NCBI GenBank assembly: GCA_964621595.1
Contig: CAZUPO010000002.1
Location: forward strand, 12,047 to 76,046
Length of the DNA stretch: 64,000 bases
Direction: 5' to 3'
From: an uncultured Candidatus Saccharibacteria bacterium
Lineage (GTDB): Bacteria; Patescibacteriota; Minisyncoccia; Phycocordibacterales; UBA5272
This document shows positions 15,596 to 39,344 of this stretch, piece after piece. The translations under genes and the position numbers were made by a program. The notes below the pieces were generated by a model, which worked only from the letters and a program-made list of their open reading frames with translations, was not told where the DNA came from and searched no databases. Position 1 is the first letter of the stretch, and the number at the start of each line of letters is the position of its first letter.

Positions 15596-15649
15596 GCGGC
15601 CTCCTTGAGGCTTAGCGGGTTTAGGGATTGGGGGAACTGAAGGATTTTT

Positions 15650-15772: not shown

Positions 15773-15795
15773 ATAGGGATAGACATTTAAATACT

Positions 15796-21918: not shown

Positions 21919-23856
21919 GTGACAACACACATTACTCTCAACAAGGCACAACTTGAAGCCGTCACACACTCGGAAGGCCCACTTCTTATTATCGCTGGTG
22001 CTGGTGCTGGAAAAACAAAAACAATAACTGAGCGCATTGTTCGCATTGTAAAAGAGGGGGCAGACCCTCGATCCATTCTCGCGGTAACATTTACCAACAA
22101 GGCTGCCAAAGAAATGCGTGAGCGTATTGTGTCACGACTCATTGAAGAGGGGTGTATCGAGAGAGATAATCCGTATCATCACACCCCTATTATCAAAACC
22201 TTCCACTCTCTTGGCCTTATGATACTGCGTCGAGACGGGCATCTGCTTGGTCTTCCTAAAACGATGACGATCGTGGACTCCGCTGATTCTCTCTCTATCA
22301 TTAAACGCTCGCTGGAGTCTCTTGGTATAGATCCCAAAACACACGATCCGACAAAAATTCGAGTCATTATAAGTAGAGAAAAAGGTAACTTCACCACGCT
22401 CACTGACTATCAAAAAAAAGTTGCGACCACTCAGATGGATGTGGTTGCTCGTGTCTGGAAACTGTACGAGGAAAATCTCCGAAGAGAGGGGTCGGTTGAC
22501 TTCGATGACTTGGTTGTTCTTGCAGTAAAACTTTTAGAAGAACATTCTAGTGTTCGGGAACACTATGTGCGTACTTTTACATACGTTCACGTGGATGAAT
22601 ACCAGGACACCAACGAGGCACAGTACGTATTTGTTAAGTTACTTGTAAACCCAGCAACAAATAATATTTGTGTGGTGGGGGACGGCGACCAGACAATTTA
22701 CACCTGGCGCGGTGCAAATATTAATAACATTCTCAATTTTGAAAAAGATTTCGAAAATGCTCGCGTTGTTCTTCTCGAGGAAAACTATCGCTCTACAGAA
22801 TCAATACTCCGCCTGGCAAATGCTGTTATTACGAAAAACACCGTGCGTAAAGACAAGCGACTTTTTACCTCACATCAAGGGGGTGACCCAATCACTGTAC
22901 TGCCTTCCTGGGATGAGACGTCAGAAGCGGAAAATATTGCCGTGCGTTGCAAAGAACTGATCGCTGGGGGAACAGACCCTCAATCTATTGCTGTTTTGTA
23001 TCGGGCAAACTTTCAGTCTCGTGTTTTGGAAGAATCTTTTATACAGCAATCTGTGCCCTATGTACTTTTGGGAACAAAGTTTTTTGAGCGAAGGGAGGTT
23101 AAGGATGTTCTTAGTTATTTGCGCGCTGCGAGGAACCGCACATCCCTTACAGATCTGCGTCGGGTACTAGAAACACCTAAGCGTGGTATCGGCAAGGTAA
23201 CAATTGCAAAACTTTTTGCAGGAGAGGAACTCTCTGCTGCCGCTCAACAAAAAATTGCCGGTGTTTTTTCTTTCCTGGATACACTGCAACAACTTTTAGA
23301 AACAGAGTCACTGTCGTTCGTGTTGCAAAAAATAATTGTGGACTCCGGTATAGAGAAGGAACTTCTCGAGGGTAGTAGTGAAGATCGAGAGAGACTAGAA
23401 AACGCTCGCGAACTTGTGTCGCTCACCGTGCGTTATGATGGCACCCCAGGGAAAGACATTGTTGATACATTTCTTGAAGAGGTGTCTCTGCAGAGTGATC
23501 AGGATGATAACGACGAGGCTCGGGGTGGGGTGCGCCTCATGACGGTGCATGCAAGTAAGGGCTTGGAATTTGATGTTGTTTTCATTGCTGGACTTGAACA
23601 AGATCTTTTCCCACACAAAAACATAGGCGGAAGAAAACAAACAAAGGAGGAAGAGGAGGAGGAGCGCAGACTTTTCTATGTGGCTGTAACCCGCGCACGA
23701 AAAAAATTATATGTATCCTACGCAGAACTTCGAACGATTTTTGGACAAAAGCAAATAAATGCACCAAGCGAATTTCTTGAAGATATTCCTTCTGATATTA
23801 ATGATGAGGCGGAACTCTACTACAAGCAAGGTGGAGGTACTGTCGTCTACATTTAG
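21919..23856 (+). CDS. pcrA: ATP-dependent DNA helicase PcrA/UvrD family
   Basis: AGAGAGKTKTIT (motif I), TFTNKAAKEM, VDEYQDTN (motif II), and VTRARKKLYVSYA near the C-terminus. Confidence 0.9.
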   Translation: MTTHITLNKAQLEAVTHSEGPLLIIAGAGAGKTKTITERIVRIVKEGADPRSILAVTFTNKAAKEMRERIVSRLIEEGCIERDNPYHHTPIIKTFHSLGLMILRRDGHLLGLPKTMTIVDSADSLSIIKRSLESLGIDPKTHDPTKIRVIISREKGNFTTLTDYQKKVATTQMDVVARVWKLYEENLRREGSVDFDDLVVLAVKLLEEHSSVREHYVRTFTYVHVDEYQDTNEAQYVFVKLLVNPATNNICVVGDGDQTIYTWRGANINNILNFEKDFENARVVLLEENYRSTESILRLANAVITKNTVRKDKRLFTSHQGGDPITVLPSWDETSEAENIAVRCKELIAGGTDPQSIAVLYRANFQSRVLEESFIQQSVPYVLLGTKFFERREVKDVLSYLRAARNRTSLTDLRRVLETPKRGIGKVTIAKLFAGEELSAAAQQKIAGVFSFLDTLQQLLETESLSFVLQKIIVDSGIEKELLEGSSEDRERLENARELVSLTVRYDGTPGKDIVDTFLEEVSLQSDQDDNDEARGGVRLMTVHASKGLEFDVVFIAGLEQDLFPHKNIGGRKQTKEEEEEERRLFYVAVTRARKKLYVSYAELRTIFGQKQINAPSEFLEDIPSDINDEAELYYKQGGGTVVYI

Positions 23857-23888: not shown

Positions 23889-24698
23889 ATGAAAGCCAAG
23901 AAGCAATTTGGGCAGAATTTTTTAACTTCCGTTCCGGCACGAATAAAAATTGTTCAGGCGGGCAATATAACCCCAGGTGAATGGGTAGTAGAGGTGGGGC
24001 CAGGAACCGGATTCCTGACGGAAGAATTACTGCGCGCTGGCGCACGTGTTCTTGCTCTAGAAAAAGATAGGGATCTTCTGCCTCTTCTTCGTGAAAAGTT
24101 TTCGCACGCAATTGAAAATGGACACCTTGTTCTACAAGAACAGGACGTCTTGTCATTTATGCCAGAAGATATGCCTGTGCTCGGAGAGGGGTACAAAGTT
24201 ATCGCCAACATTCCATATTACATAACCGGGGCCATCTTTAGACACTTCCTTGCGCGCCCCCACAAACCAACCACCATGGTTGTTCTTATCCAAAAAGAAG
24301 TCGCTGAGAGGATTGTGGCTCGGGATGGTAAAGAGTCTATTCTATCCTTGTCAGTATCAGTATATGGAAAACCTCGCATTGTTACGCGGGTAGATAAGGG
24401 GAGTTTTAACCCTCGCCCAAATGTCGATAGTGCCGTACTCGCCATAGACTCTATTTCTCAGATTTTTTTTAAAAACCCATACGAAGAGGAGATGTTTTTC
24501 AAGATGGTGCACGCTGGGTTTCTTCATAAAAGAAAACTTTTGGTTTCCAACCTACAACACATATTTCCTTCACTTCCTATGCGCAAACTTTTTGAAGAGT
24601 CTTCTGTAGATGTCTCTATTCGGGCGGAAAAACTTTTGTGTGATGATTGGATTCGTTTAGTACGAACCATACTCTTGGCAACCAAAACTGGACACTAG
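23889..24698 (+). CDS. rsmA: 16S rRNA (adenine1518/1519-N6)-dimethyltransferase
   Basis: KKQFGQNFL N-terminal motif and VVEVGPGTGFLT SAM-binding motif. Confidence 0.9.
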   Translation: MKAKKQFGQNFLTSVPARIKIVQAGNITPGEWVVEVGPGTGFLTEELLRAGARVLALEKDRDLLPLLREKFSHAIENGHLVLQEQDVLSFMPEDMPVLGEGYKVIANIPYYITGAIFRHFLARPHKPTTMVVLIQKEVAERIVARDGKESILSLSVSVYGKPRIVTRVDKGSFNPRPNVDSAVLAIDSISQIFFKNPYEEEMFFKMVHAGFLHKRKLLVSNLQHIFPSLPMRKLFEESSVDVSIRAEKLLCDDWIRLVRTILLATKTGH

Positions 24699-24755: not shown

Positions 24756-25691
24756 ATGGACAAAGAAAGCACCTTACAGTCAAGAACCCTGGGCGCACTT
24801 GGGTTGTTTATTCTCTTACTTATTCTCTCAGCAGCAATTCCTTCATCGTGGTTTACAAAAAAAACACCCTCTAAACACAGCCCCATAAACCTACGGGCCA
24901 TTATCGAGGCGAGTAAATCGGCGCATGATACAAACCATGACGGGGCTGTTACTTGGCAAGAACTCATAGAACAAAGTTTTGATGATGCAACGTCAAGCAT
25001 TGCACAGTTAAAGAAAGACTTTCCGCCCGATCCAAAAGTTCTCGAGGAATTAAATGACCCCAACAACCTCACGAGTTCTCTCACAAAAAAACTCTTTGTT
25101 GCGAGCAGTTTGATGGAGGGGAATGAGTCTACAGACGAAGCAGCAAAAAATCGTTTACTGTCTCGAATGATACAAGAAGAGGCAACCAAAATTGCCCAGA
25201 CAAAATATGCTGTTGAAGACATTACTCTAACCAAAGGAGATAGTAAAGGTGATCTAAAAACATATGGTAATGCCGTCGCCCCAATTATAAAAAACCTTAT
25301 AAACACTACAATTATTACTAATGATTTAGCGGCAATTAACTCCTTCACCCAAACCAGAAATCCTTCCGATCTTGCTGAAATAAAGAAGAACAATGATCGT
25401 GTTGGTCCTCTTATAACCAAACTTCTTGCAACACCGGTGCCCCCATCTCTTGCCCTGCAACACTTAGTTATCATAAACCGCCTCGCTTCTTACAAAGACA
25501 TTCTGAATGCCTTGGCCGGAGCAGGCAGCGACCCCCTACGCGCCAGCCTTGTGATGGGAAATTATACAGATGCTGTAGTGTCTGTTGGGACCGTTCCGGC
25601 TCAACTAAAAAACTTGTTTGATTCCAAAAATGTCGTTTTCTCCTCAAATGAACCTGGATATATATTTACAAGTGGGTATACTTATAAATAA
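24756..25691 (+). CDS. Hypothetical membrane-anchored/secreted protein; first gene of the T4SS-like cluster
   Basis: N-terminal TM LGALGLFILLLILSAAI. No domain match recognisable. Confidence 0.45.
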   Translation: MDKESTLQSRTLGALGLFILLLILSAAIPSSWFTKKTPSKHSPINLRAIIEASKSAHDTNHDGAVTWQELIEQSFDDATSSIAQLKKDFPPDPKVLEELNDPNNLTSSLTKKLFVASSLMEGNESTDEAAKNRLLSRMIQEEATKIAQTKYAVEDITLTKGDSKGDLKTYGNAVAPIIKNLINTTIITNDLAAINSFTQTRNPSDLAEIKKNNDRVGPLITKLLATPVPPSLALQHLVIINRLASYKDILNALAGAGSDPLRASLVMGNYTDAVVSVGTVPAQLKNLFDSKNVVFSSNEPGYIFTSGYTYK

Positions 25692-25697
25692 TCTTGT

Positions 25698-27605
25698 ATG
25701 AAAAAACATTTTGTTCTTATACTCATGCTCGTTGCTGTTGTGTGTGCGCCTACACGCAGCTATGCTCTGGTGGTAGAGTGTCCGCTTTGTTCTAAATATG
25801 CAAAGCAGGTGGAGGAGTGGTTCACAGAAAAAGCATCTCTTGTAAAAGAAACTATTAGTTCAAATCAGAACACGATCACCGCGACACAACAAACCCTCGC
25901 CACAGTAAACTCAAACGTTATTCGACCGATGAACGATGCCATGAACCTCGTGGCACTTGCTAACACTCTTACTAAAAATGCCAACCTTGTAACACAGCAA
26001 GGTCTTCTAAAACAAGACCCTGAGCAGTATTTAAAAACCGTCGGTACTCAGGTCGTTATGGCTAACCTTGCAAACATCCAATCAAGCGGAGGTATATACG
26101 GGAGTGATGTTTACAAATCTGTTGTCGCGAGAACGCGAGAGACCAGTAATCCGATGACAAACCTAAACCGACTTACTCAATCAAGCATTCCCAGCCAAAT
26201 ACAAGATGAGGTATGTGATACTGGAGAACTAGAAGAATATGCAAAAGAAGAGGCAACGGATGAAGATGGAAATATAAATGACGAGGACTACGAATACTAC
26301 AAAGAACTATACTACGATAGTTTTTGCACCGGGGAGCCGAGCCAAGATAAAGAACTAGCACAGCGATTAACTGCTGTGGATGGTGCCAGGGGTGGAAATG
26401 ATCTTAACCGAATACTTTCCAAAACAGATTGTGATAACACCTACTGTCGAACGGAGCGTGCGTCTAACGAAATAGAAAAAATTAAATCTCAAAAAATCGC
26501 AACTGCCCAGAAGGAACTCGATTACGGGCAGGGTATAGCGGGTCCCAAAATATGTACTCAACGAAGTGAGCCGGACACTAATGGAGAAACATACTGCTTA
26601 AAGGAGGTTAGTATCACGCGAGCGTCCGATTTAAGTGCTGCTTTCCAGAAAAACACTACTGCGGAGATTGACAGACTGATTGCCACCTACGGAACTGGTG
26701 GTACACCGAGTTTTCTAAGCGGTGTATTTGATTTGGCAAAGGGAGTATTTGGTATCGCGGCTACAGGGTACGGCATATATCAAAATGGTAGCGCTTCACT
26801 CAATAAACTCGAGGGTGCGGCGGACAACCTTGGCAACAACCTGGACTCGTTCGCTGGTGGAAGTGATGCAAAGATTGGATCCTCTGGTGTTCAGGTTGCA
26901 AGCAATGGAAGTCTCTCTGGGCTTCTTTCTTCTGGAACATCCGGGCGGACTGCTTCCTACCAAAAAGACCTAACTGCCGGGAGTAAGGCACAGACATCTA
27001 TGTACAGTTCTGTCGTTGATCAGATGCGAACACATTTGGACAGTTTGACCCAACTTGAGAGTTTAGATAATGATTACTTGAGTAAAATATCGAGCAACCA
27101 AAGTTCACTTGAAAGTATGAAAGCATGTTACGAGGCGCTCACACGTGACTACGGTGCGTCACGAATTATTTATCTAGAGGGAGGAGGTACCACAACCGTT
27201 CCAGGACTCTTTCCTTCGAACGACCCGCGCCTAACTTCTGCGCTTGACTACTATAACCGCCAAACAAATAAAAACAATTCTTTGCAGAATACGGTGAATG
27301 CAGAAATTTCCACTACGATACCCCAAGCTAGAGCATTCATACAACAAACCAAGGACGCGGTGGCAAACTCCCTCTCTTCGGAAGAAATCTACGATCTCTT
27401 TAACTCATACCAGACCGCGATTTCAAGCAAACAATTACCGGTCCTAACAGCAAGCTCTCAGCGAGAAGCCGAAGTAATGGGCTACGATAGCGATACACAG
27501 ATGGCGCGTGAGGAGGGTGGTATAATCTTCGAATTCCAAAAAACTTGCTCTACGACTCGCGATGACATCATACGTCAAATGTCACAAAGCCAAACTTCAT
27601 TCTAG
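25698..27605 (+). CDS. Large secreted hypothetical protein (635 aa)
   Basis: Signal peptide MKKHFVLILMLVAVVCAPTRSYA. Ser/Thr/Asn-rich. Confidence 0.5.
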   Translation: MKKHFVLILMLVAVVCAPTRSYALVVECPLCSKYAKQVEEWFTEKASLVKETISSNQNTITATQQTLATVNSNVIRPMNDAMNLVALANTLTKNANLVTQQGLLKQDPEQYLKTVGTQVVMANLANIQSSGGIYGSDVYKSVVARTRETSNPMTNLNRLTQSSIPSQIQDEVCDTGELEEYAKEEATDEDGNINDEDYEYYKELYYDSFCTGEPSQDKELAQRLTAVDGARGGNDLNRILSKTDCDNTYCRTERASNEIEKIKSQKIATAQKELDYGQGIAGPKICTQRSEPDTNGETYCLKEVSITRASDLSAAFQKNTTAEIDRLIATYGTGGTPSFLSGVFDLAKGVFGIAATGYGIYQNGSASLNKLEGAADNLGNNLDSFAGGSDAKIGSSGVQVASNGSLSGLLSSGTSGRTASYQKDLTAGSKAQTSMYSSVVDQMRTHLDSLTQLESLDNDYLSKISSNQSSLESMKACYEALTRDYGASRIIYLEGGGTTTVPGLFPSNDPRLTSALDYYNRQTNKNNSLQNTVNAEISTTIPQARAFIQQTKDAVANSLSSEEIYDLFNSYQTAISSKQLPVLTASSQREAEVMGYDSDTQMAREEGGIIFEFQKTCSTTRDDIIRQMSQSQTSF

Positions 27606-27658
27606 ATTCTAGTGGATTTTAAACAGTCTTTTGTTTCCTTTGTGGTACACTACGTGAT

Positions 27659-30157
27659 ATGAGAAGGGTTTTGATTCCTCTTTTTTCTCTTGCTATTATA
27701 TGGTCGCTTTTTATTCCTGCCACGGTTCATGGAGCAGTTACTGACGCAGAAATAAAAGCTCTGCGAGATGAGGCGAGAACATACTCAAGCTATAACGGCT
27801 TTGACAATGGTGGGGTGTTTTTGATTAATTATCAAGAGATTGTAGCAAGCACTGCTGCGCGACTAAAAAATGACCCGGACGTCAACAAAGAACAATTAAA
27901 AAAATATATACTCGAGGGAATTCCTGGCGCAACCGACCCAAACCAACAAGGTTTTATTCCCTATTTGCAAAAAAAACTATCCGACTGTTCGGACAGGGGA
28001 TACCTTTCTGCTGCCCTAAATACAGTTTTTGGAAATTCAACAGCACAGTGTATCAAACTTACCGAGGCCGCAATCGCAAATGCAGAAATACAGTTGAAGG
28101 GGGCGACTGTTCGAGATGAAAAAAATGGTGGGGTCATTACTCAGGCAGAAGCCTCGACGCAAATTCAAAATGCGGGAGCGGAAGGAAGTCGGAAGGTTGC
28201 GGCGGCTATAGCGCGATTTGAAAACGCAAAATGTCAAAGTCTCTGGGATGCAACTTTTATTGATTGTATCGATGTTGCGGTGGCGTGGATTATTAAACAC
28301 TACTTCCTACAAATCGCTGGGTTCGTACTCTGGCTCAGTGCGAACATGATGAATTACGCCATAAAGATAGCCATCCTCCAGTTTTCTCAATGGGCGCCAG
28401 CGGCGTTCTACGGTGTGTGGGTGGTGGTGCGTCAAGTTATATCGCTGTTTGTTGTGTTTGCGGGGTTGTGGCTTGGAATGATGTACATTCTGGACAGAAA
28501 ACAGGAGTTTGAGCGTTTCGTGCCATATCTCATCCTCTTTGCGCTATTTGTTAACTTTTCATACCCATTTGCCAGAACACTGATAGACGTCTCTAATGTT
28601 ATTTCTTTGAATATCTACACGAGTGTATTCGGTGCCGAGGCTCTGTCTAACGACGTAATGTCATCGAAGTCCCCCGGGTCCATCATTACCAACCGCCTCG
28701 GACTCGTAAATATTGTAGACCTGGCAACCGGTACAAAAGCAGCAGACAGTGGATTTCTTAACAGTCTCGACAGTGTTCCAGGCGCGCTTACTGCTGTTGT
28801 TTTCATTCTCTATTCCGCATACGTGTTTTTTATGGCTACGGCTATCCTCGTTACACGAACTGCTGTGCTTGTCTTTGTTATCATAGGGTCTCCACTTCTC
28901 TTTGTTGATAGTGTTGTGCCGGCACTAGGAGAACAAGCTAAAAAACTCAGAGGAATTTTTGTCGACCAACTCACTGTGGGACCAGTCTTTACTATTCTCT
29001 TGGCCATAACACTCAAGTTTTTGGATTCCTTGCGGCAAAGTGGTCCACTTAGTTCTATATCTACCGGGATAAACGCTGCATCAAACGCCACCGCGGGAAG
29101 GCAAGATACGGTACAAATATTCTTTGGACTTCTTCTTATGATTGTTGCCCTGCATCTCATGCTGAAAATAACGAAAAGTGTTGCTGGAAAGGCTGGTGCG
29201 ATGGCGACAGATTTTATGGGGAAGGTTGGGGGCATGGCAAGCGGCGTAGCAGTTGGTGCAGCAACTGGTGGAGTTGGGTTACTTGGTCGTGCAACTGTTG
29301 GTAGTCTTGCGGCGAAGGCGCGTGACAGCAAGTGGATGACAAACAACCAAGATTCTTTTCTTGGTAGGCGTGCGTACAATTTAAGTAATTCATTAGCGTC
29401 GAGTTCATTTGATGCTCGTAACTCATCCGTCGCCAAGGCTGGATTCAATAAACTTGGGCTTTCTAGAGGGATGGGCTCGGGGCAGAAGGGTGGTTATGAT
29501 GCTGATGTAACAAATAAAATGAATGACCGTCGTGCGCGGTTAGGTAGAATTCAAGTAACAAATGACGACGGAACTATAAATAAAGAAGGTGCTGCAGCAA
29601 AGCAGCGTTTCTATGAAAAAAATAAGGATCTTGGGGGCGGTAAGTTTGGTAAGGAAATGGTTGACAAGGATTGGGATGAGGCTATTGCTGCAAATAAAAA
29701 AATTGATGCTTATGTTTCAAAAACTGGAGAAAAAAAGGAGGCCTACTTTAACGCTCAAACTGACCCAATACTCAAGGAGCAGATGAAGGCTGTCCAGGTA
29801 AGCAAAGACCAGCTTGCGGCAAATCAGGCTCTTGCTCAATCTAATCAAGCGCTCGCGACAGAGATGCGGGAGACTCGCAATGCAAAATCAGGGGTTGGGG
29901 TTGCTGCGGCCGGGGCGGCAACTGCTACGGCGGCAACTCCTATACAGGTAAATGTTACTGATGGTAAAACAACAGGGCTATCTCTAGAAACTCCAACGGA
30001 GGCATCCTACAGAGTAAGAGGACTATCCCTTGAAACTGACAAAGAGGCTTCTGCTCGAGTGGCACTTGATAAAACAAAAAGTGGCACCGAAAACCGAGTG
30101 GATCATAACCTTGTAGATCATCAGAAGCATGTGGAGGAAGAGTTGTTTGCTTCTTAA
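27659..30157 (+). CDS. Polytopic membrane protein, VirB6/TrbL-like candidate (832 aa)
   Basis: Signal peptide, about 8 hydrophobic helices in residues about 200-520, Gly/Ala-rich low-complexity C-terminal region. Position just upstream of VirB3/VirB4-like genes. Confidence 0.45.
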   Translation: MRRVLIPLFSLAIIWSLFIPATVHGAVTDAEIKALRDEARTYSSYNGFDNGGVFLINYQEIVASTAARLKNDPDVNKEQLKKYILEGIPGATDPNQQGFIPYLQKKLSDCSDRGYLSAALNTVFGNSTAQCIKLTEAAIANAEIQLKGATVRDEKNGGVITQAEASTQIQNAGAEGSRKVAAAIARFENAKCQSLWDATFIDCIDVAVAWIIKHYFLQIAGFVLWLSANMMNYAIKIAILQFSQWAPAAFYGVWVVVRQVISLFVVFAGLWLGMMYILDRKQEFERFVPYLILFALFVNFSYPFARTLIDVSNVISLNIYTSVFGAEALSNDVMSSKSPGSIITNRLGLVNIVDLATGTKAADSGFLNSLDSVPGALTAVVFILYSAYVFFMATAILVTRTAVLVFVIIGSPLLFVDSVVPALGEQAKKLRGIFVDQLTVGPVFTILLAITLKFLDSLRQSGPLSSISTGINAASNATAGRQDTVQIFFGLLLMIVALHLMLKITKSVAGKAGAMATDFMGKVGGMASGVAVGAATGGVGLLGRATVGSLAAKARDSKWMTNNQDSFLGRRAYNLSNSLASSSFDARNSSVAKAGFNKLGLSRGMGSGQKGGYDADVTNKMNDRRARLGRIQVTNDDGTINKEGAAAKQRFYEKNKDLGGGKFGKEMVDKDWDEAIAANKKIDAYVSKTGEKKEAYFNAQTDPILKEQMKAVQVSKDQLAANQALAQSNQALATEMRETRNAKSGVGVAAAGAATATAATPIQVNVTDGKTTGLSLETPTEASYRVRGLSLETDKEASARVALDKTKSGTENRVDHNLVDHQKHVEEELFAS

Positions 30158-30169
30158 GAACTATCATCT

Positions 30170-30919
30170 ATGAACCCTTCCTACATAATCTCTGATAAAA
30201 ATAAACTAAAGGAACTCTTCGAACAGTCCCACACTGATATTAAGGCCCTTATCAAAGGAGGTGAGGCAAAGCGTATTGTTGCAACACTCTCGGAAAAATA
30301 CAAAATTCCTGCCGCAAAAACAATTCCTCTCTCCAATATCATTGTCTATGTACTTATCGGTGCACTCGAGCCAGAAAACACCGTGCAAGCAATTATAGAT
30401 CTTGTTGAAGTAGATGAAAAAACTGCTAACCTGATTGCGACTGACCTAGATAAAGATATTTTTCAACGCGCGCGACAAATCATGCTTGGCAACACAGATG
30501 ATGTTGTAAAACTTGAGTTCAAGGGGGAAAAGACCCCTGATGAGTTGCGCAAGGAAATTATGGATACCACAAAACAAAAGAGTGGTATAACCACACCTCA
30601 GTCCTCCAGTGCTCAAACAAAGCCTTCAGTAACGCCAAGTGGGTCTCGTTCGGCCCTCATGGAACAACTGCAAATACTTGGGAATATTCCAAACGACCGA
30701 GAAATAGAGGACCGCCTTAAGACTATTCAAAAGCAAATAGCGGAGATAAAAAAGAAAGAAGATGATGACAAAACCCTTCACTCTCCAGTTGCTTTAAAAA
30801 GTTTTATGTTTGGAGAAAAGGGCAAGGAGCTCGTTGCTCCTAAAGCGCGAACCGCCACCTACAGCGTTGCTCCAACTCAATATAACGTCGACCCGTACCG
30901 AGAGGTAACCGAAGAGTAG
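30170..30919 (+). CDS. Hypothetical protein in the T4SS-like cluster
   Basis: ORF only. One hydrophobic segment. Confidence 0.4.
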   Translation: MNPSYIISDKNKLKELFEQSHTDIKALIKGGEAKRIVATLSEKYKIPAAKTIPLSNIIVYVLIGALEPENTVQAIIDLVEVDEKTANLIATDLDKDIFQRARQIMLGNTDDVVKLEFKGEKTPDELRKEIMDTTKQKSGITTPQSSSAQTKPSVTPSGSRSALMEQLQILGNIPNDREIEDRLKTIQKQIAEIKKKEDDDKTLHSPVALKSFMFGEKGKELVAPKARTATYSVAPTQYNVDPYREVTEE

Positions 30920-30982
30920 TCCGGTGCACGGTCTTTACACTGGAGTATATATTTCTCTGGTTCTCTTGATATACTACTACGT

Positions 30983-31420
30983 ATGCAATTCCGAGTGCCA
31001 CAATTTATAGATATAGAAGACAAGGTGATTGGACCTCTTACTTTCAAGCAGTTTGGATATATCATCGGGGCAGGGGGTCTTTCTTTTCTCATATGGACAT
31101 TTATCCCCATAAAAGCCATTGCTATCATTCTTATAGTTCCGGTTGCCGCCCTTTTCCTTGCTCTTGCGTTTGTGCGTTTTAATAACCGTCCTTTTGCCGA
31201 TCTTTTAGAAAGTGCTTTTGCATACTACACGGGACCAAAAATATTCACCTGGAAACAGCCCATCCCAAAAACAACCGGGAATGAAGCAAAAATAGATCAG
31301 ATTGTAGCAGACACAACAAAAGAGGTTATTATTTCCAAAACGAACAAAGATCGTCTGCACGATCTCGCACTTGGGCTGGATGTTCTTGATACTAACCCAC
31401 AGAAAGATAGGCCTCTATAG
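30983..31420 (+). CDS. Small two-TM membrane protein, VirB3-like candidate
   Basis: Two hydrophobic helices (GAGGLSFLIWTFIPI, IAIILIVPVAALFLALAFV). Immediately upstream of the VirB4-like ATPase, as virB3 typically is. Confidence 0.4.
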   Translation: MQFRVPQFIDIEDKVIGPLTFKQFGYIIGAGGLSFLIWTFIPIKAIAIILIVPVAALFLALAFVRFNNRPFADLLESAFAYYTGPKIFTWKQPIPKTTGNEAKIDQIVADTTKEVIISKTNKDRLHDLALGLDVLDTNPQKDRPL

Positions 31421-31447
31421 AAATTTCTACGGTATACTCATAAATAT

Positions 31448-32086
31448 ATGGCAAAAGGAAAGGCAACACAAGAAATTGTCCCTATTGATCGTATTCGTGA
31501 CGGCATCATTCTTCTTGATGGAGGTGAGTTTCGTGCGGTTGTTATTACCAACTCACTCAATCTTTCTCTCAAAAGCGAAGATGAACAATCTGCAATACTG
31601 ATGCAATTTCAGTCGTTTCTTAACTCACTCGATTTTCCTGTTCAATTTTTTATAGAATCGAGGCGCCTTAACATTAAGCCTTATATAGATATGCTTCAAG
31701 CAAGGAGCAAGGAGGTGAAGGAGGATCTTCTAAAAATACAGATACACGAATACATAGGATTCATTACGAAGTTTACTGAAGAAACAAACATCATGACCAA
31801 ACACTTCTTCATCGTAGTGCCATACTACCATCCCGGTGAAGATGCGGTGACTGCTTCTTCTCTTTTATCAATCGGTGCGACAGACTTCACATCAAAGAAG
31901 TCTCAGGCTGCCTTTGATGCGGCGCGTATCCAAATAGAGCAGCGTATCTCGACCGTGCTCCAGGGGTTGGCGCGCTTTGGAATACGTGGGCAAAAACTTG
32001 GCACAGAAGAAGTGGTAGAATTATTCTACAAGCTCTTTAATCCTAGCGAGCAGAATCGTGATGCACCTAAGGTGGAAGAAAAATAA
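31448..32086 (+). CDS. N-terminal region of a VirB4/TraE-like conjugal ATPase encoded as a separate ORF
   Basis: 212 aa. Stops 2 nt before the ATPase ORF, in a different frame. Confidence 0.45.
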   Translation: MAKGKATQEIVPIDRIRDGIILLDGGEFRAVVITNSLNLSLKSEDEQSAILMQFQSFLNSLDFPVQFFIESRRLNIKPYIDMLQARSKEVKEDLLKIQIHEYIGFITKFTEETNIMTKHFFIVVPYYHPGEDAVTASSLLSIGATDFTSKKSQAAFDAARIQIEQRISTVLQGLARFGIRGQKLGTEEVVELFYKLFNPSEQNRDAPKVEEK

Positions 32087-32088
32087 GT

Positions 32089-33906
32089 ATGGGAATATTC
32101 GATTTTTTAAATTCAAAAAAGAAAACAAGTCCGGTGTCTGCCGTTCTTCCAGAACAGGTATATAAGATCGCGGAGATGCAGTTGAAGGATGTTATTGCGC
32201 CGAGTGCTCTTGGTGTGACTCCAAAAGATATTAATCTTGGCGAGGTAATGCTTCGATCGTTCTTTGTTATATCATACCCGCGCTTCCTCAACGATAATTG
32301 GTTGAGTCCGATTATCAACCTCGACAAGGTGTTCGACGTAGCAATCCATATATCACCCCTTAGCACAGGGGAGGTGATGAAAACATTCCAGCGAAAAGTT
32401 GCTGAAGTGGAGAGTCAGATTATGACAAGAGAAGAGAAGGGGCTTGTCCGCGACCCGACACTTGATGTTGCATACCAAGATCTAGAAGACTTGCGAGATG
32501 GCCTTACTCAAGCCCAAGAAAAGATGTTTGAGGTGTCGCTCTATATTTCTATTTATGGTCACAACGAGGACGAGATTGTCAAAGCAGAAAATGAAATAAA
32601 AAATATTCTTGAGAGTAGACTTATCTACGTAAAGCCAGCCCTTTTCCAACAGGATACAGGGTTTCTCTCTACCATCCCACTCGCTCGAGATCTTTTGAAT
32701 ATCAAGAACAAACTAAATACATCACCTCTTTCTTCCTTCTTCCCATTTGTTTCTTTTGATCTCTCCTCTGATAAGGGTATTTTGTATGGACTTAACCGCC
32801 ACAATGGAAGTCTCATTCTTTTTGATCGTTTTTCACTTGAAAACTACAACTCTATAGTATTTGCAAAATCTGGTTCTGGAAAAAGTTATCTCACAAAACT
32901 AGAAATTCTTCGAACCCTCATGTTTGATACCGAAGTTATTATTATCGACCCAGAACGTGAGTATGAATTTTTGGCAGAGTCTGTCGGCGGAAGATACTTT
33001 GATATCGCCCTAACCAGTGATCACCATATCAATCCATTTGATTTGCCTCATCCGGCTGTTGATGAATCTCCTTCTGAGGTGTTACGTTCCAACATCGTTA
33101 ACCTGGTTGGACTCTTCCGTGTTATGTTGGGAGGGCTCACACCAGAAGAAGACGCCATTATCGATCAAGCCATCACAGAAACATATGCTTTGAAAGACAT
33201 TACCGGTGATGCTGATTTTACAAAACTTGAACCACCTCTTCTCTCGGACTTCGAGATGGTGCTCGCTGGAATTGAAGGGTCTGAAGATTTAATTCAACGT
33301 CTTTCAAAATATACAAAAGGGACTTGGTCTGGATTTATTAACAAGCCATCAAACGTAGATATTAATAAAAAGCTGGTCTGTTTCTCTATCCGCGATATGG
33401 AGGATGAGTTGAAACCTGTTGCGATGTACATCGTGACTCACTTCATATGGAATGCTGTTCGCAAAGATTTGCGCAAGCGATTGCTTATCGTAGATGAGGC
33501 GTGGATTATGATGAAAAACGATGACACGGCCTCGTTCCTCTTTGGTCTGGCAAAGCGGGGGCGTAAATATTATCTTGGACTCGCAACCATCACCCAAGAT
33601 GTTGGTGACTTCTTAAAATCACCCTATGGTTTACCCATCATTGCAAACTCTTCTATACAGGTACTTCTCAAACAATCTCCCTCTTCTATCGATATAGTAC
33701 AAAAAACATTTAATTTGACCGATGAAGAAAAGTATCTTCTCCTTGAATCTGGCGTAGGGGAGGGAATCTTTTTTGCAGGTCTTAAACATGTGGCCCTCAA
33801 GGTTGTTGCTTCATATACTGAAGATCAGATTATCACGAGTGACCCATCACAACTTATAAAAATAAAGCAAATGAAAGATGAACTAGGTCAAGCAAAGCAA
33901 CTATGA
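32089..33906 (+). CDS. VirB4/TrbE/TraE-family type IV secretion ATPase (C-terminal ATPase module)
   Basis: Walker A FAKSGSGKSYLTK. Walker B/DEAW-like LLIVDEAWIM. 605 aa. Confidence 0.8.
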   Translation: MGIFDFLNSKKKTSPVSAVLPEQVYKIAEMQLKDVIAPSALGVTPKDINLGEVMLRSFFVISYPRFLNDNWLSPIINLDKVFDVAIHISPLSTGEVMKTFQRKVAEVESQIMTREEKGLVRDPTLDVAYQDLEDLRDGLTQAQEKMFEVSLYISIYGHNEDEIVKAENEIKNILESRLIYVKPALFQQDTGFLSTIPLARDLLNIKNKLNTSPLSSFFPFVSFDLSSDKGILYGLNRHNGSLILFDRFSLENYNSIVFAKSGSGKSYLTKLEILRTLMFDTEVIIIDPEREYEFLAESVGGRYFDIALTSDHHINPFDLPHPAVDESPSEVLRSNIVNLVGLFRVMLGGLTPEEDAIIDQAITETYALKDITGDADFTKLEPPLLSDFEMVLAGIEGSEDLIQRLSKYTKGTWSGFINKPSNVDINKKLVCFSIRDMEDELKPVAMYIVTHFIWNAVRKDLRKRLLIVDEAWIMMKNDDTASFLFGLAKRGRKYYLGLATITQDVGDFLKSPYGLPIIANSSIQVLLKQSPSSIDIVQKTFNLTDEEKYLLLESGVGEGIFFAGLKHVALKVVASYTEDQIITSDPSQLIKIKQMKDELGQAKQL

Positions 33907-34871
33907 AGCACATACTACTCTTGGCTTGTGTTTGGATTATGTTGGGGTGGGGAGTCTCCACCTTCGCGGCATATGATGGATTTATCGTAATTGATCCACC
34001 GAACCCAGAGCCAAATTCTTCAGTAACCCTAACCCTTCGAAGTTACTCCCTTGATGTTGATAATGCAATGGTTACATGGGTCTCTGGTGGGAAAGAACTT
34101 CTGAAAGGGTACGGAGAGAAGAAAATAACCGTTCGCACCCGGGGAGCGGGAGAAAACATCGTTGTTTCGGCCAAGGCTGAAACTGATGCGGGGGATTTTT
34201 TTATAACAAGTGTTACACTTGTCCCACAGTCGGTTGCAATCGTCTACGAAACACCAGAGAGTTACGTCCCTACATTTTATGAAGGAAGGTCGCTCCCTGG
34301 AGAGGGGTCAATTGTGAAATTTGTCGCAATGGGAAATATTTCCGAGAACGGCAGGGTTGTTCCTCCTTCCAGTCTTTCATACTCTTGGTTTGTAAACGGT
34401 GAGTTGCGCGAGCAGTCTTCTGGAAGAGGGAGGCAGTCTGCTCTTATCCCGCTAGATATTTTGAGTGACTCAACAGAAATAAAAGTCGTTGCGCGATCGT
34501 CCTCGGGCGTAACGGCTGAGAAAAAAATTGAAGTGTTTCCTCATCAAGTTCTCCCTCTTTTTTACACATATAGTGATATTTTTGGAACCGATTTTACAAA
34601 ATTGGTTTCGAGGCGTTTTGAGGCAACAAAACCATTCACCCTTGCGTTTGAACCTTTTTATTTTTCAAAAAATGGTATGTACGAGGACACGGCTGCTGTT
34701 GTGTGGACACTGGATGGACTTCCTGTTACTCCATATCGAGCAAAGAAACTATTATTTGAACCAAAGAAAAATAGTTACGGCTCAAAAACGTTAAAGATTT
34801 CGCTTCAGCAAGAGAAGCGCTACCTACAGGATACCGAAACTTCTTTGAATCTTATTTTTGATACCCGCTAA
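33903..34871 (+). CDS. Secreted hypothetical protein
   Basis: Signal peptide MKHILLLACVWIMLGWGVSTFA. ATGA overlap with the preceding gene. Confidence 0.5.
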   Translation: MKHILLLACVWIMLGWGVSTFAAYDGFIVIDPPNPEPNSSVTLTLRSYSLDVDNAMVTWVSGGKELLKGYGEKKITVRTRGAGENIVVSAKAETDAGDFFITSVTLVPQSVAIVYETPESYVPTFYEGRSLPGEGSIVKFVAMGNISENGRVVPPSSLSYSWFVNGELREQSSGRGRQSALIPLDILSDSTEIKVVARSSSGVTAEKKIEVFPHQVLPLFYTYSDIFGTDFTKLVSRRFEATKPFTLAFEPFYFSKNGMYEDTAAVVWTLDGLPVTPYRAKKLLFEPKKNSYGSKTLKISLQQEKRYLQDTETSLNLIFDTR

Positions 34872-34876
34872 ATACC

Positions 34877-35707
34877 ATGAATCAGCCATCATATACGGAA
34901 CTTGAACCTAATTTTGCTGGACCGGTAACTACACTCAAGCCCCAGTTCTTTGGATCCTCTGTAACCTTTTTCGCCTCCTCCTCTTTTCTCTACACACTGC
35001 TATTCTCAGCGATTGTAGTATCTGCTGGAGGAATGATTATTTATGGAGCGATACTTAGGTTGGTTCCTTCTGCAAGTAGTGAGGCGAAGTCTAGGGAGAT
35101 TTTTTGGAGGGTTCTTAAGGGTGTGGTTGGAACATTTTCGTTTGCTCTTATATTTCTTACGTTTAATAGGGATTTACTCCGGGGGGATATTGATTTCGGA
35201 ATACTGCGAGCGGGGGTCGGGTCGGGAGGAATAACTACCTCACAAGATAATCCTGATAGACCTGTAGCACCCCCATCTCCAGGATCCAGAACGACCGCAC
35301 CACCGGAAGAGTGGTGGAAAGCTATTAATGAATCTCCGGAGGTTCGAAAGCGTTTGGGGGCCCGTGGAATAACATTCAACAATAATACCTGTAGAAACCC
35401 CGCGGAGACCGCTTGTACAACCGTGGGGGGCTTACCAGAAGACACCCTTGCCATGCTTGAACAATTAAAAGACTACTGCCCCGGCGAACTTATGGTAACA
35501 GGGGGAACGGAAGCGGGGCACAGTGCACATGGGCCCGGCAAAAGAGCTGTGGACCTATCTCGAAAAAGTGCTGCCTTTAATGCTTGTGTTGAAGGATTTG
35601 AGCCGACAAGAAATCCTGGCTTTTGTCACGCCGCATATAAAAAATTCGGCTATACTTTTTGTAATGAGGTGAGTTCTCAGCCCCATTGGCACGTGGATAT
35701 ACGTTAA
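34877..35707 (+). CDS. Membrane-anchored peptidoglycan peptidase: shared TM/pilin-like N-module fused to peptidase M15 (VanY-like) domain
   Basis: N-terminal hydrophobic module FFASSSFLYTLLFSAIVVSAGGMIIYGAIL. C-terminal SAHGPGKRAVDLS (SxHxxGxAxD) and EVSSQPHWHVD (ExxH) motifs of zinc D-Ala-D-Ala carboxypeptidase-like hydrolases. Confidence 0.6.
   Translation: MNQPSYTELEPNFAGPVTTLKPQFFGSSVTFFASSSFLYTLLFSAIVVSAGGMIIYGAILRLVPSASSEAKSREIFWRVLKGVVGTFSFALIFLTFNRDLLRGDIDFGILRAGVGSGGITTSQDNPDRPVAPPSPGSRTTAPPEEWWKAINESPEVRKRLGARGITFNNNTCRNPAETACTTVGGLPEDTLAMLEQLKDYCPGELMVTGGTEAGHSAHGPGKRAVDLSRKSAAFNACVEGFEPTRNPGFCHAAYKKFGYTFCNEVSSQPHWHVDIR
34966..35196. repeat. 231-bp segment identical to 37167..37397 (direct repeat copy A)
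   Basis: Base-for-base identical stretch by inspection from TTTTTCGCCTCCTCC to GGGGGGATATTGATTT. Encodes the shared N-terminal module of the two hydrolases. Confidence 0.85.
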
Positions 35708-35742
35708 GACCTTACGCGTCTTACTTGCTATACTTTAGGAAC

Positions 35743-37077
35743 ATGAGTAGACGAATGCTTTTCTTTGTTGTTGGTGTTGCGATTTTTACACTCGGCGTGC
35801 TTGTTTGGTTTTTTACACAAACAACAACGTCTTCTTCGGGATCAATCATCAATAAAACAAATCCTCTTTCTCTGCGCGATTTTCCTAAGCGTTTTCAATT
35901 CATAGGCAATCCAGACACAGAGGAAGAGCAGGGTACCTCAACAACCGAGATAACACTTGCCACTCCCCAGATACTCACCAAAATTTGGGACAAACCCTCA
36001 TCTGGTCAGGCGTTTGTTGTGAAAGAGTATTTAAGAGAAGTTTCTTCAACATCAACCATTATAAAAGCAAGCACCTCAACGAAAGCAACCACAACTGAAC
36101 AAGTGGTTGTAAAGAAGACGCTGCGAGCGACCTCAACCATTCTTATGTTTGTTGATAGAGAAACCGGACATATTTATGGTTTTAGTTTTGATACAAATAA
36201 AGTATTTCAGATAAGTAACTCGACGTTCCCGGGCATTCATGATGCATATATAATTTTTGATGGCACAACGGTTGTGATGAGATATGAAGACGAGGAAAAG
36301 CGAGCAATTGTTGGTATTATGGCGACAATACCCTCCGTCGCCCAAGGTCAAGATCCTCGACCTTTAGAAAACATAACATACCTACCCTCACAGGTTATCT
36401 CTGTTGCCTCGAGTCCGGATAAAACACTTCTATCCTACGTGGTAGATAGCGGCACAGATGTTGCAGTATATACCATGTCAAAAACAGGGACTCAACTCAT
36501 TACCAAAACACCATTTAAGGAATGGTCTCTCGTGTACGGTGGCAACACACTGCATGCATACACAAAGCCATCAGCTTATGTTGAGGGATATATGGCAAAG
36601 TTGCCCACCTTTGAAATGGTTACGCCGGGAAGAACGGGTCTTATTAGTCTCCCTTCAAACTCTTCTTCCATGATTACCAGCATGTGGTCAAATAAAGGGC
36701 TTTTAACATACATAACTTCTTTGGGGAAAGATACGGTATTACCCATCAAAACACTTGCGTCAAAATGTGCTTGGGGAACGCAACAATTTATACTCTGCGC
36801 GGTTCCACGCTCACTACCGCGAGGTAGTGAGGGGCTGCCGGATGATTGGTATCAGGGTCGCGTGTCATTTGATGACACATTTATTCTCGTTGATTCCAAT
36901 ACGGGAGAAACCTCTCCTCTTTTCTCTTTTGATGGAATGAATGGTCTCCCATTTGATGTGACTAATATTATTCTTTCGGAAGATAGTTCTCTTGTTTCTT
37001 TTATACGAAAACAGGACGGTTCTTTATGGTTATTAAATACAAACCTCCTTTCTGGCGCAGGTGAAACAAACCCGTAA
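35743..37077 (+). CDS. Secreted/membrane-anchored hypothetical protein between the two hydrolase genes
   Basis: Start taken at MSRRMLFFVVGVAIFTLGVLVWFF (TM/signal anchor). The track ORF begins 19 codons earlier, overlapping the previous gene. Confidence 0.45.
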   Translation: MSRRMLFFVVGVAIFTLGVLVWFFTQTTTSSSGSIINKTNPLSLRDFPKRFQFIGNPDTEEEQGTSTTEITLATPQILTKIWDKPSSGQAFVVKEYLREVSSTSTIIKASTSTKATTTEQVVVKKTLRATSTILMFVDRETGHIYGFSFDTNKVFQISNSTFPGIHDAYIIFDGTTVVMRYEDEEKRAIVGIMATIPSVAQGQDPRPLENITYLPSQVISVASSPDKTLLSYVVDSGTDVAVYTMSKTGTQLITKTPFKEWSLVYGGNTLHAYTKPSAYVEGYMAKLPTFEMVTPGRTGLISLPSNSSSMITSMWSNKGLLTYITSLGKDTVLPIKTLASKCAWGTQQFILCAVPRSLPRGSEGLPDDWYQGRVSFDDTFILVDSNTGETSPLFSFDGMNGLPFDVTNIILSEDSSLVSFIRKQDGSLWLLNTNLLSGAGETNP

Positions 37078-37080
37078 CTT

Positions 37081-38067
37081 ATGAACAACGCCGATTATCG
37101 CGCTCTTGAGCCTGGGGTTGTGGCTAATATAACAAGTTTAAAATATCCTGTTGGTGGGGTTAGTTCTTTTTTCGCCTCCTCCTCTTTTCTCTACACACTG
37201 CTATTCTCAGCGATTGTAGTATCTGCTGGAGGAATGATTATTTATGGAGCGATACTTAGGTTGGTTCCTTCTGCAAGTAGTGAGGCGAAGTCTAGGGAGA
37301 TTTTTTGGAGGGTTCTTAAGGGTGTGGTTGGAACATTTTCGTTTGCTCTTATATTTCTTACGTTTAATAGGGATTTACTCCGGGGGGATATTGATTTTAG
37401 TGTTCTTGGTGTTGGTGCTAAGAATATGATATCGAGTATAAGTGGCGCCCCTTCATCTTCAAATAGTACTTCCGCGTCATGTCCTTCAGCAGACTCATTA
37501 AAGCAAACCCTCTCTGGCGGGGGGGATGTCTGCGCTGGGGCGCGATGCTCTGCACTAAGTGGGTGTAGATTCAGAGACTATCTGTCTATAATAAAAAGTG
37601 AATCTGAAAAACAGGGGGTGGATTACAAACTGGCGATAGTAATCATGTGTAAAGAATCCACAGGAAAAAGAGACGCTACTAATGACAACAGGGACGGAAC
37701 ATATGATTGTGGTCTCATGCAGATAAATCAAAGGGGGCCTTGCACGCCAGATTCATTCATACCTGAAAAAAATATTGCTGAGGGTGTTCGTCTTATAAAA
37801 GAAAAAACTGGTCCTTCAACCTCAAGAAATTATCCTGGCGCACCACAACTTGGAAATCTTTTTGCGGCATACAACTGTTGTGCGAGGGGGGCAGCTCCAT
37901 ACGAAGCAAGTGTGGACTGTACAACTGGAAGCGGCTGGCCTTCGACACTTCCTAAATGGGCGTGTCCAATAAATCCGGGGTCCGGACCTTCAAACATGTG
38001 TACAGTACGAAGTTACGCCTGTGATTTAAACGCTTGCTATAAAGACAGTTCCTTAGAGGGGCTTTAA
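37081..38067 (+). CDS. Membrane-anchored lytic transglycosylase (VirB1-like SLT domain) with the shared TM/pilin-like N-module
   Basis: The same N-module as 34877..35707. C-terminal SLT catalytic motif KESTGKRDATNDNRDGTYDCGLMQIN (ES...GLMQ). Confidence 0.65.
   Translation: MNNADYRALEPGVVANITSLKYPVGGVSSFFASSSFLYTLLFSAIVVSAGGMIIYGAILRLVPSASSEAKSREIFWRVLKGVVGTFSFALIFLTFNRDLLRGDIDFSVLGVGAKNMISSISGAPSSSNSTSASCPSADSLKQTLSGGGDVCAGARCSALSGCRFRDYLSIIKSESEKQGVDYKLAIVIMCKESTGKRDATNDNRDGTYDCGLMQINQRGPCTPDSFIPEKNIAEGVRLIKEKTGPSTSRNYPGAPQLGNLFAAYNCCARGAAPYEASVDCTTGSGWPSTLPKWACPINPGSGPSNMCTVRSYACDLNACYKDSSLEGL
37167..37397. repeat. 231-bp direct repeat copy B (identical to 34966..35196)
   Basis: See copy A. 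Confidence 0.85.
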
Positions 38068-38772
38068 GTGTGCGAGTTTGTTTTTCATATATATATCTTG
38101 TCCATAGCCGATGGTGTTACTAACAACAAAGTAGAGGGCAATGGCTGAAGGGAAAAATGCGGACATAACTGTAGTAATAACCGGAAGAACGTAGAGAATT
38201 TGGATTCTCATTGATTTCATGAGTTGGTCCTGAAACGTTTCCTCGTGTGAGGCTTTCTTGGTAACCATGCTAGTGGTTTGCCTTCGGGCAAGCATAAATG
38301 AGGAGATTCCGGCGAGCACAGCCAAAATAATACTTTTTTGTGTCATATCAAAAAAACCAAACGCTAGTGTGTGTAGGGACTCTGGAAAAGATAGGAAGGT
38401 ATAGAGAGAGGTTGGGTCATTGTGCATCCCTTTGAAAAAAACTTGGTACAGCGCAATAATCACAGGAATTTGAAGTAGTGGACCAAGAATCCCTGCGAAT
38501 GGGTTGAGTTTTTCTTTTTTATAGAGATCCATCATTTTTTGAGATGCCTCTCTTGGATCCTTTTTCTGTAATTCTCGTATTTTTGCCATCTCTGGCTCTA
38601 ATCTCTTCATAAGATATTGGGTGCGAAGGGCAGAAATGTTAAGTGGGAGAAGAATAAACTTTACAACAAGGGTTACTATGATGATGGCAATCCCAATGTC
38701 GTGTAGAGGGGTATTAGAAAGAACAAAAACAAGGAGATTGTAAATTGGTTCGTAAAAAATAGTGTGGAACAT
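38053..38772 (-). CDS. yidC: Membrane protein insertase YidC (short form)
   Basis: Oxa1/YidC-like multi-TM protein. Conserved position downstream of rnpA. Confidence 0.8.
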   Translation of the reverse strand: MFHTIFYEPIYNLLVFVLSNTPLHDIGIAIIIVTLVVKFILLPLNISALRTQYLMKRLEPEMAKIRELQKKDPREASQKMMDLYKKEKLNPFAGILGPLLQIPVIIALYQVFFKGMHNDPTSLYTFLSFPESLHTLAFGFFDMTQKSIILAVLAGISSFMLARRQTTSMVTKKASHEETFQDQLMKSMRIQILYVLPVITTVMSAFFPSAIALYFVVSNTIGYGQDIYMKNKLAHLKPL

Positions 38773-39239: not shown

Positions 39240-39344
39240 GGGTATATTTTACACGATTTTGGGTGATAAATCAATATCTTTAAAACGGTGTACTGTGTGG
39301 GTCAAGTTGTGGCAATTTTTAGCACGTGTATACTACATACCATC

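Follow-up and report, generated by a model that had tools for sequence, protein, structure and literature searches.

Gene content of the cluster

We analyzed a 64,000-nucleotide stretch of DNA, here called the window, from an uncultured bacterium submitted as Candidatus Saccharibacteria (GTDB: Patescibacteriota, Minisyncoccia; GenBank assembly GCA_964621595.1, contig CAZUPO010000002.1, positions 12,047 to 76,046 of the forward strand), together with 6.7 kb past its left end. The subject of this analysis is a gene cluster at window positions 24756-38067 that resembles a type IV secretion system (T4SS). It consists of 11 open reading frames (ORFs), g1 to g11, all on the plus strand and separated by -4 to 63 nt, a packing that is operon-like. 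Scans for consensus promoters and terminators yielded no informative signal. We performed Pfam searches on about 60 ORFs of the window and NCBIfam searches on the cluster proteins and the unannotated ORFs, and we called membrane helices at a hydrophobic-segment threshold of 1.6. A scan of one genome per species gave VirB4 relatives in 557 genomes, and we compared synteny at the best 80 loci of these (L001-L080).

An earlier note, made from the letters of the sequence, had proposed a 13-kb co-directional cluster of secreted proteins, a VirB6-like polytopic protein, a VirB3-like small membrane protein, a VirB4 ATPase, and two cell-wall hydrolases. The gene models bear out the layout, and the secreted proteins are recognizable by N-terminal signal or anchor segments in the products of the genes at 24756, 25698, 33903, and 35743. 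The note had missed that VirB4 is split over two genes, that both hydrolases carry VirB2-like pilin hairpins, and that g10 most likely starts at 35743. The features of the cluster are as follows.

24756-25691, plus strand: g1, a 311-aa extracytoplasmic, lineage-specific protein with one N-terminal membrane anchor (hydrophobic segment 11-29)
25698-27605, plus strand: g2, a 635-aa, fast-evolving secreted protein (N-terminal signal-like segment)
27659-30157, plus strand: g3, an extended VirB6-like polytopic membrane protein of 832 aa (predicted fold)
30170-30919, plus strand: g4, a 249-aa protein, probably cytoplasmic (no clear membrane helix)
30983-31420, plus strand: g5, a PrgI family protein, the monoderm VirB3 equivalent (Pfam PrgI)
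31448-32086, plus strand: g6, a TrsD-like protein of 212 aa, a free-standing VirB4 N-terminal domain (NCBIfam)
32089-33906, plus strand: g7, the VirB4 ATPase with its central and C-terminal domains (NCBIfam, Pfam, PDB)
33903-34871, plus strand: g8, a 322-aa secreted protein (signal segment; found in 70 of 80 loci)
34877-35707, plus strand: g9, a predicted VirB2-like pilin hairpin at about residues 31-96, connected by a disordered stretch to a zinc peptidase domain of LAS fold (144-276; AlphaFold model)
34967-35196, plus strand: first copy of a 230-nt direct repeat, inside g9, coding for the pilin hairpin (repeat search)
35743-37077, plus strand: g10, a membrane-anchored extracytoplasmic protein of about 444 aa (N-terminal anchor)
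37081-38067, plus strand: g11, a predicted VirB2-like pilin hairpin joined to a lytic transglycosylase of SLT/goose-lysozyme type, the VirB1 equivalent (Pfam SLT, PDB)
37168-37397, plus strand: second copy of the 230-nt direct repeat, inside g11, a putative gene-conversion tract (repeat search)

A fixed chromosomal site

Upstream of the cluster lie uvrD/pcrA (21919-23856) and then ksgA/rsmA (23889-24698). Downstream comes yidC (38053-38772), which runs in the other direction and overlaps g11, the last cluster gene, with its 3' end; dnaA (39288-40682) and dnaN (40907-41998) follow. Because ksgA lies upstream and yidC, dnaA, and dnaN lie downstream, the cluster sits in the usual neighborhood of the replication origin. 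A scan for DnaA boxes across the window gave no enrichment over chance, so oriC was not placed and origin proximity rests on the yidC-dnaA-dnaN neighborhood. Other genes of the window are housekeeping genes (tpiA, pgk, uppS, rpsO, uvrD, a class A penicillin-binding protein, tyrS, ruvABC, polA, tsaE, fpg, and a Mur ligase), and the 6.7 kb to the left of the window hold nusA, ppa, tig, and further core genes.

The order ksgA, g1 to g11, yidC (opposite strand), dnaA, dnaN was kept across the 80 species-level Paceibacteria loci wherever the contig was long enough, and the cluster occupied the same chromosomal site in all 80. VirB4 was 71-89% identical across these loci, more conserved than the neighboring DnaA, DnaN, YidC, and KsgA; at the more distant loci (VirB4 71-77% identical), DnaA was 40-73% and DnaN 27-47% identical. 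Since VirB4 at a fixed site outdoes DnaA in conservation, the cluster is best regarded as core genome and not as cargo. The composition agrees with that of the surroundings: the GC content of the cluster is 0.436 against 0.438 for the remainder of the window, and tetranucleotide usage is alike. The earlier note had likewise called the composition host-like.

No relaxase of any MOB class and no coupling protein of the VirD4, TcpA, or FtsK type was found among the roughly 60 window ORFs or in the 6.7 kb of left flank, which extends the note's remark that neither VirD4 nor a relaxase was recognizable and goes against the ordinary element that, by the note, such genes beside the cluster would have indicated. 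The cluster edges likewise showed no flanking direct repeats, tRNA, or integrase. The tRNAs lie more than 20 kb from the cluster, and the only integrase-family gene in the window encodes a Xer-type tyrosine recombinase (13891-14874, minus strand) located among housekeeping genes 10 kb upstream of the cluster.

These results bear on whether an ordinary integrative and conjugative element (ICE), with its relaxase, coupling protein, and integrase outside the window, could have the cluster as its mating-pore module. The order of PrgI, VirB4, and SLT hydrolase is indeed that of Gram-positive conjugative plasmids, and g7 passes the curated cutoff of a conjugal-transfer family. However, an ICE would hardly be expected to occupy one and the same place, flanked by ksgA and yidC/dnaA, in 80 species-level genomes, with a VirB4 more conserved than DnaA, with a composition identical to that of its surroundings, with borders free of direct repeats, tRNA, and integrase (the Xer-like gene being distant), and with housekeeping genes continuing past the left end of the window. 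Relaxases, moreover, were reported in only 103 of 3,035 Patescibacteria genomes (PMC12102498). We therefore regard the ICE reading as largely refuted and very improbable. The shared site in 80 genomes, the conservation of VirB4, the matching composition, and the lack of a relaxase, a coupling protein, and a boundary in the sequence read argue for a vertically inherited core machine.

Motor and membrane platform

The ATPase g7 scored 367.7 bits against the NCBIfam model "VirB4-like conjugal transfer ATPase, CD1110 family" (curated cutoff of 325) and also matched Pfam TraG P-loop and AAA_10. Its Walker A (KSGSGKS, residues 260-266) and Walker B (LLIVDEAW, residues 465-472) motifs are both intact. 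Among solved structures, the closest relative is 4ag5, the VirB4 of the monoderm Thermoanaerobacter (E = 2e-40), and the diderm TrwK reached only E = 2e-7. An identity as FtsK or HerA, which would have spoken against the note's VirB4 call, was rejected on the CD1110 family score and on 4ag5 as the best solved relative. We found more than 8000 homologues of g7; the closest (86-100% identical) come from metagenome-assembled genomes (MAGs) of Paceibacteria, Parcubacteria, or Nomurabacteria, and the top named relatives are all Patescibacteria.

The N-terminal part of VirB4 is encoded separately. The product of g6 aligned with the CD1110 VirB4 model over model positions 2-163 (E = 2e-7), and also with the Mbov_0397 VirB4 model (E = 6e-11) and TrsD/TraD (E = 5e-6), in every case under the curated cutoff. 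VirB4 thus spans two adjacent ORFs in different frames, 2 nt apart (31448-33906). Because g6 is a separate ORF in 79 of the 80 related loci, the split is not a frameshift error.

Two further proteins complete the putative membrane platform. With two membrane segments and a Pfam PrgI score of 44.6 bits (E = 2.1e-11; cutoff of 27), g5 corresponds to the small VirB3-like protein of the earlier note, and it was present in 74 of 80 loci. The large g3 product begins with a signal peptide and an N-terminal outer domain that is variable; a conserved membrane core of several helices follows at about residues 200-530, and the tail is hydrophilic and again variable. Sequence models barely detect it: the TrbL/VirB6 model matched 1 of 20 g3 homologues, at E = 0.0034, and a g3 profile run against PDB sequences gave no useful match. 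The predicted fold does match VirB6, which gives good support for a VirB6-like protein as first proposed. Because helical bundles give a high background in such comparisons, we take the grade of g3 no further than VirB6-like.

The N- and C-terminal regions of g3 are hypervariable. The exact g3 protein was absent from a collection of 5.8 billion proteins, where the best match was 47-51% identical, and g7 and g11 were found there exactly.

Cell-wall hydrolases and their VirB2-like hairpins

The two proteins at the downstream end of the cluster, g9 (276 aa) and g11 (328 aa), had been called an M15 peptidase and an SLT transglycosylase. The second assignment stands: g11 matched Pfam SLT with 31.1 bits (E = 1.9e-7; cutoff of 21.3), and its PDB matches are goose-type lysozymes. 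The first is right in kind, in that g9 is probably a zinc cell-wall peptidase, and the M15 family itself is unsupported. The AlphaFold model of g9 (pLDDT of 78.7 overall and above 90 in the C-terminal domain) shows a hairpin of two helices (residues 31-60 and 66-96) that a disordered linker (109-139) joins to an alpha/beta domain (144-276) whose predicted fold is that of the LAS (hedgehog/DD-peptidase) zinc peptidases. Residues H215, D226, H270, and H272 are invariant across the family and fit the LAS zinc ligands His, Asp, and His-x-His. M15 models gave no match to g9, and M15 was not among the families listed for 26 syntenic homologues. For 44 diverse g9 relatives, which matched 35 families, M15 was likewise missing from the 25 families matched most often. 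A search of PDB sequences with the g9 profile was empty.

The predicted hairpin of g9 has the two-helix fold of conjugative pilins. A profile search with the g9 family across 1.84 billion proteins gave 835 cluster representatives (E <= 1e-10), most of them aligning end to end. Among 45 diverse members that align end to end, 34 matched Pfam T4SS_pilin (best E = 7e-11) and 4 matched TrbC/VirB2; for the g9 and g11 proteins of the window themselves, no pilin model (PF18895, PF04956) reached E = 0.01. Over their first 113 residues, g9 and g11 share 79% identity. Since the relatives match pilin models and the hairpins of g9 and g11 are nearly identical, both hydrolases appear to consist of a VirB2-like hairpin and an enzyme on a flexible tether.

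Within this shared region, the two copies of the 230-nt direct repeat are 100% identical. A six-frame search of the window found no third copy of the hairpin. We then compared 15 related Paceibacteria genomes that carry both g9 and g11, which are separate assemblies with varied naming schemes. In all 15, the two hairpins shared identical runs of DNA (71-395 nt) and were 78-99% identical as proteins; the pairs were traced in loci L002-L032 (for example, L003:12795-13652 and 14963-15991). Across 14 genomes, the window among them, the median hairpin identity was 90% within a genome. Between genomes the median was 50%, and it was the same for like and unlike genes. This combination of high identity within genomes and low identity between them, irrespective of the gene, indicates that the hairpins of g9 and g11 are homogenized by recurrent gene conversion while they diverge between species. 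Because the pattern recurs across separately assembled MAGs, an assembly artefact is unlikely to explain the identity.

In more distant Paceibacteria (L052, L061, L063, and L068, at about 12750-15100), the gene between g8 and g10 codes for a larger protein of 330-780 aa, with a signal peptide, a large outer domain, and an internal two-helix hairpin that is sometimes followed by a LAS peptidase. Given this internal placement, the hairpin is a movable module at the g8-g10 position.

The fusion of VirB2-like hairpins to both wall hydrolases, together with their gene conversion, is possibly new, and it is the only candidate novelty of this locus; a full-text search of an incomplete library found no literature linking VirB2-like hydrolase modules to gene conversion. 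We tentatively suggest, as a rather doubtful proposal, that the hydrolases are pilin-module subunits that enter the T4SS assembly site or a pilus-like tube, giving an enzymatically "armed" structure. If so, the armed structure would cut the glycan strands and peptide cross-links of the symbiont's or the host's wall, gene conversion would keep the two pilin modules interchangeable within a genome, and the fast divergence of the hairpins between species would perhaps track a fast-evolving partner or host. The fused and homogenized hairpins offer a handle on how the machine crosses walls and on whether it builds a pilus.

Proteins without an assignable family

For five lineage-specific cluster proteins (g1, g2, g4, g8, and g10), no family was identified by Pfam, by NCBIfam, or by profile searches of PDB sequences, and scanning their homologues against Pfam was no more productive. 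Syntenic homologues of g1 were found at 28 loci (25-40% identity). The g2 protein is 20-28% identical to its syntenic homologues and has seven Cys residues that are invariant in the alignment. In g4, a borderline hydrophobic peak at residues 48-66 scored 1.63 against the threshold of 1.6, and a C-terminal D-P-Y motif (D241, P242, Y243) is invariant; the gene was found at the same position in 37 loci. The g8 protein is a candidate for a wall-spanning structural part. For g10, the reading frame is open from 35686, and homologues of 410-450 aa align from an internal ATG, so that the start is most likely 35743 and not the listed 35686. Both g8 and g10 are spread across the loci examined, and g1, g2, and g4 fade with distance.

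With two peptidoglycan hydrolases, five components that lack T4SS homology, and an M23/LysM peptidase, a class A penicillin-binding protein, and yidC nearby, the locus could conceivably be a module for cell-wall remodeling or division, in which hydrolases and a membrane scaffold retain a VirB4-like ATPase without any transport. We consider this very unlikely, as VirB3, VirB4 with TrsD, a VirB6-like protein, and VirB2-like modules occur together in canonical order, the operon contains no division or elongation genes, and yidC, dnaA, and ksgA are ordinary neighbors of the origin region.

A proposed non-conjugative machine at the host interface

The ultra-small Patescibacteria account for a large part of bacterial diversity and lead a life attached to other microbes, and the T4SS is among the few machines shown to be essential for the attached lifestyle (in Saccharibacteria). 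We propose that the cluster encodes a chromosomal T4SS-like machine of Patescibacteria that has a role at the host interface and is non-conjugative, and we put the probability of this identification and general role at roughly 0.85. The earlier note had likewise favored a non-conjugative T4SS-like apparatus over a mobile element, of the sort suggested to act in host attachment or DNA uptake; the synteny, the taxon, and the lack of conjugation genes and element borders in the sequence read agree with it, as do published accounts of such systems (PMC10633639, PMC12102498).

In the proposed mechanism, the machine would descend from monoderm conjugation machinery (mating-pair formation class FATA, MPF-FATA) that was uncoupled from the initiation of DNA transfer. 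By homology or fold, the motor is a VirB4 in two parts, the TrsD-like N-terminal protein and the ATPase body, for which PrgI/VirB3 and the extended VirB6-like protein would form the docking site on the single membrane. The LAS-fold peptidase and the SLT transglycosylase, also recognized by homology or fold and each tethered by a VirB2-like hairpin and a flexible linker, would supply the cutting of peptides and glycans; in Gram-positive bacteria, VirB1 proteins combine both cutting activities in one chain. These enzymes may open the symbiont's own wall, and possibly the host's, at the machine. The four signal- or anchor-bearing proteins without homologues may form the wall-spanning and surface part or may be cargo. 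The whole would serve the host interface without conjugation, as a conduit for protein export to the host cell or for taking macromolecules out of it; that it does not conjugate is suggested by the lack of a relaxase or coupling protein in cis.

Several points weigh against this proposal. Five of the 11 cluster proteins have no assignable family, and no cluster protein had a sequence match to a VirB8-like component of NTF2 fold in Pfam, NCBIfam, or PDB profiles. A homologue of the type IV coupling protein (T4CP) is likely to exist elsewhere in the genome, since 2,918 of the 3,035 genomes in a published survey have one, in most cases far away from virB4 (PMC12102498). All functional tests concern Saccharimonadia, a class that is only distantly related (PMC11665869).

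Both effector delivery and nucleotide acquisition have been proposed as functions of the T4SS (PMC11665869). A rival reading makes the machine an importer, which would take in nucleic acids of the host, whether DNA or RNA, or other macromolecules by way of a pilus-like tube and feed a cell that is unable to make nucleotides. ComB in Helicobacter and Ced in Sulfolobales provide parallels, and a relaxase and a T4CP, neither of which is present in the sequence read, are needed for DNA export and not for import. A PNAS perspective names the T4SS as a candidate route of nucleotide acquisition because comEC is dispensable and the T4SS essential in S. epibionticum (PMC11665869). In addition, a 2026 preprint describes a cultured relative with tubular structures reaching the host and with uptake of host RNA (10.64898/2026.06.21.733656), though these tubes were seen by microscopy without proven identity. 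The match of g7 to the archaeal DNA-import ATPase CedB is weak and partial (E = 2e-10, far under the cutoff), and it reflects the shared ATPase core only. No sequence feature points to a direction of transport, and the cluster has no recognizable nucleic-acid-binding component. On balance we think a dedicated importer unlikely and retain the broader proposal of a non-conjugative host-interface machine.

Other features of the window

Several further loci in the window encode surface or competence-related proteins. About 3 kb upstream of the cluster, a gene for an M23/LysM peptidoglycan peptidase (19221-20363, minus strand) adjoins a 372-aa ORF (20476-21594) that matched no family. A PilB/T2SSE-type ATPase, a type IV pilus component, is encoded at 47721-49424 on the minus strand (Pfam T2SSE, E = 2e-116); besides the T4SS, this pilus is the surface machine for which essentiality has been reported in Saccharibacteria. 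A ComM/Mg-chelatase-like AAA protein is encoded at 17671-19224 (plus strand), among housekeeping genes and not adjoining the cluster; ComM is associated with competence in other bacteria. Finally, a GC-rich island at about 49000-52000 (0.54 against a background of 0.44) covers ORFs 49710-50351, 50625-51314, and 51468-53477. It codes for a glycine-zipper protein that has a lipobox-like LGGC signal, for a Pro/Ala-rich protein anchored in the membrane, and for a DUF11 surface protein of 669 aa whose gene holds a 51-nt tandem repeat (51937-52066).

Comparison with known systems

Among conjugative systems, the nearest are those of the MPF-FATA class, such as pCF10 Prg/Pcf, pIP501 Tra, pGO1 Trs, CTn2 (CD1110 family), and Clostridium perfringens pSXP-169_2. 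The cluster shares with them a CD1110-family VirB4, the order of PrgI, VirB4, and SLT protein, a TrsD-like protein as in pGO1, and a single-membrane architecture without VirB7, VirB9, and VirB10. The best plasmid matches to VirB4 are 29-36% identical, all from Bacillota or Actinomycetota. In the C. perfringens plasmid, the core runs from two small proteins through PrgI and an unsplit VirB4 to a large SLT protein, and it is directly preceded by MobC, a relaxase, DUF3801, and a VirD4-like protein. In contrast, the cluster lacks a relaxase, MobC, VirD4, oriT, and an adhesin, its VirB4 is split, and it is fixed in the chromosome and vertically inherited. It has pilin modules, which the Gram-positive systems do not, and it distributes the cutting over two proteins where they use one SLT+CHAP protein. 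Judged by its genes, the window holds the mating-pore half without the DNA-processing half.

Non-conjugative use of such machinery is known from Bordetella Ptl, Brucella VirB, Helicobacter ComB, and Sulfolobales Ced, which also have no relaxase and in some cases no T4CP and which serve protein export or DNA import (PMC12102498, PMC11665869). Ptl, Brucella VirB, and ComB differ from the cluster in being diderm systems with VirB7, VirB9, and VirB10, Ced is archaeal, and sequence relatedness of all of these to the cluster is limited to the VirB4 core.

The closest counterparts are the T4SS of the Patescibacteria clade. Wang et al. 2023 used transposon sequencing (Tn-seq) to show that the homologous Saccharibacteria locus, SEML1_0006-0019, is essential to the epibiotic growth of Southlakia epibionticum. 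They noted that it resembles the conjugative T4SS of Gram-positive bacteria, that it has pilins, and that it lacks recognizable coupling or relaxase proteins (PMC10633639). Across the 3,035 genomes surveyed by Quinonero-Coronel et al. 2025, Patescibacteria VirB4 formed a monophyletic clade nested in MPF-FATA, with TrsD, PrgI, VirB6, VirB1, and VirB2 near virB4; in Paceibacteria virB4 was close to dnaA, dnaN, and ksgA, and VirB8 was rarely found in the phylum (PMC12102498). A 2025 review lists the Patescibacteria systems as new members of the superfamily (PMC12857230). The system was thus already described in 2023-2025, and the window presents a complete Paceibacteria example of it and no new kind.

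The cluster matches these systems in its chromosomal place by dnaA and ksgA, in TrsD with VirB4, PrgI/VirB3, and a VirB6-like protein, in its VirB2-like modules, in the peptidase and lysozyme-type enzymes encoded shortly after virB4, and in having no relaxase or T4CP in cis. To this picture the window adds the strength with which the locus is conserved, VirB4 standing above DnaA. It differs in having no free-standing pilin array, its only two pilin modules being fused to hydrolases. The VirB2 paralogues within an array are at most 54% identical (PMC12102498), whereas the hydrolase modules described here are 78-99% identical within a genome.

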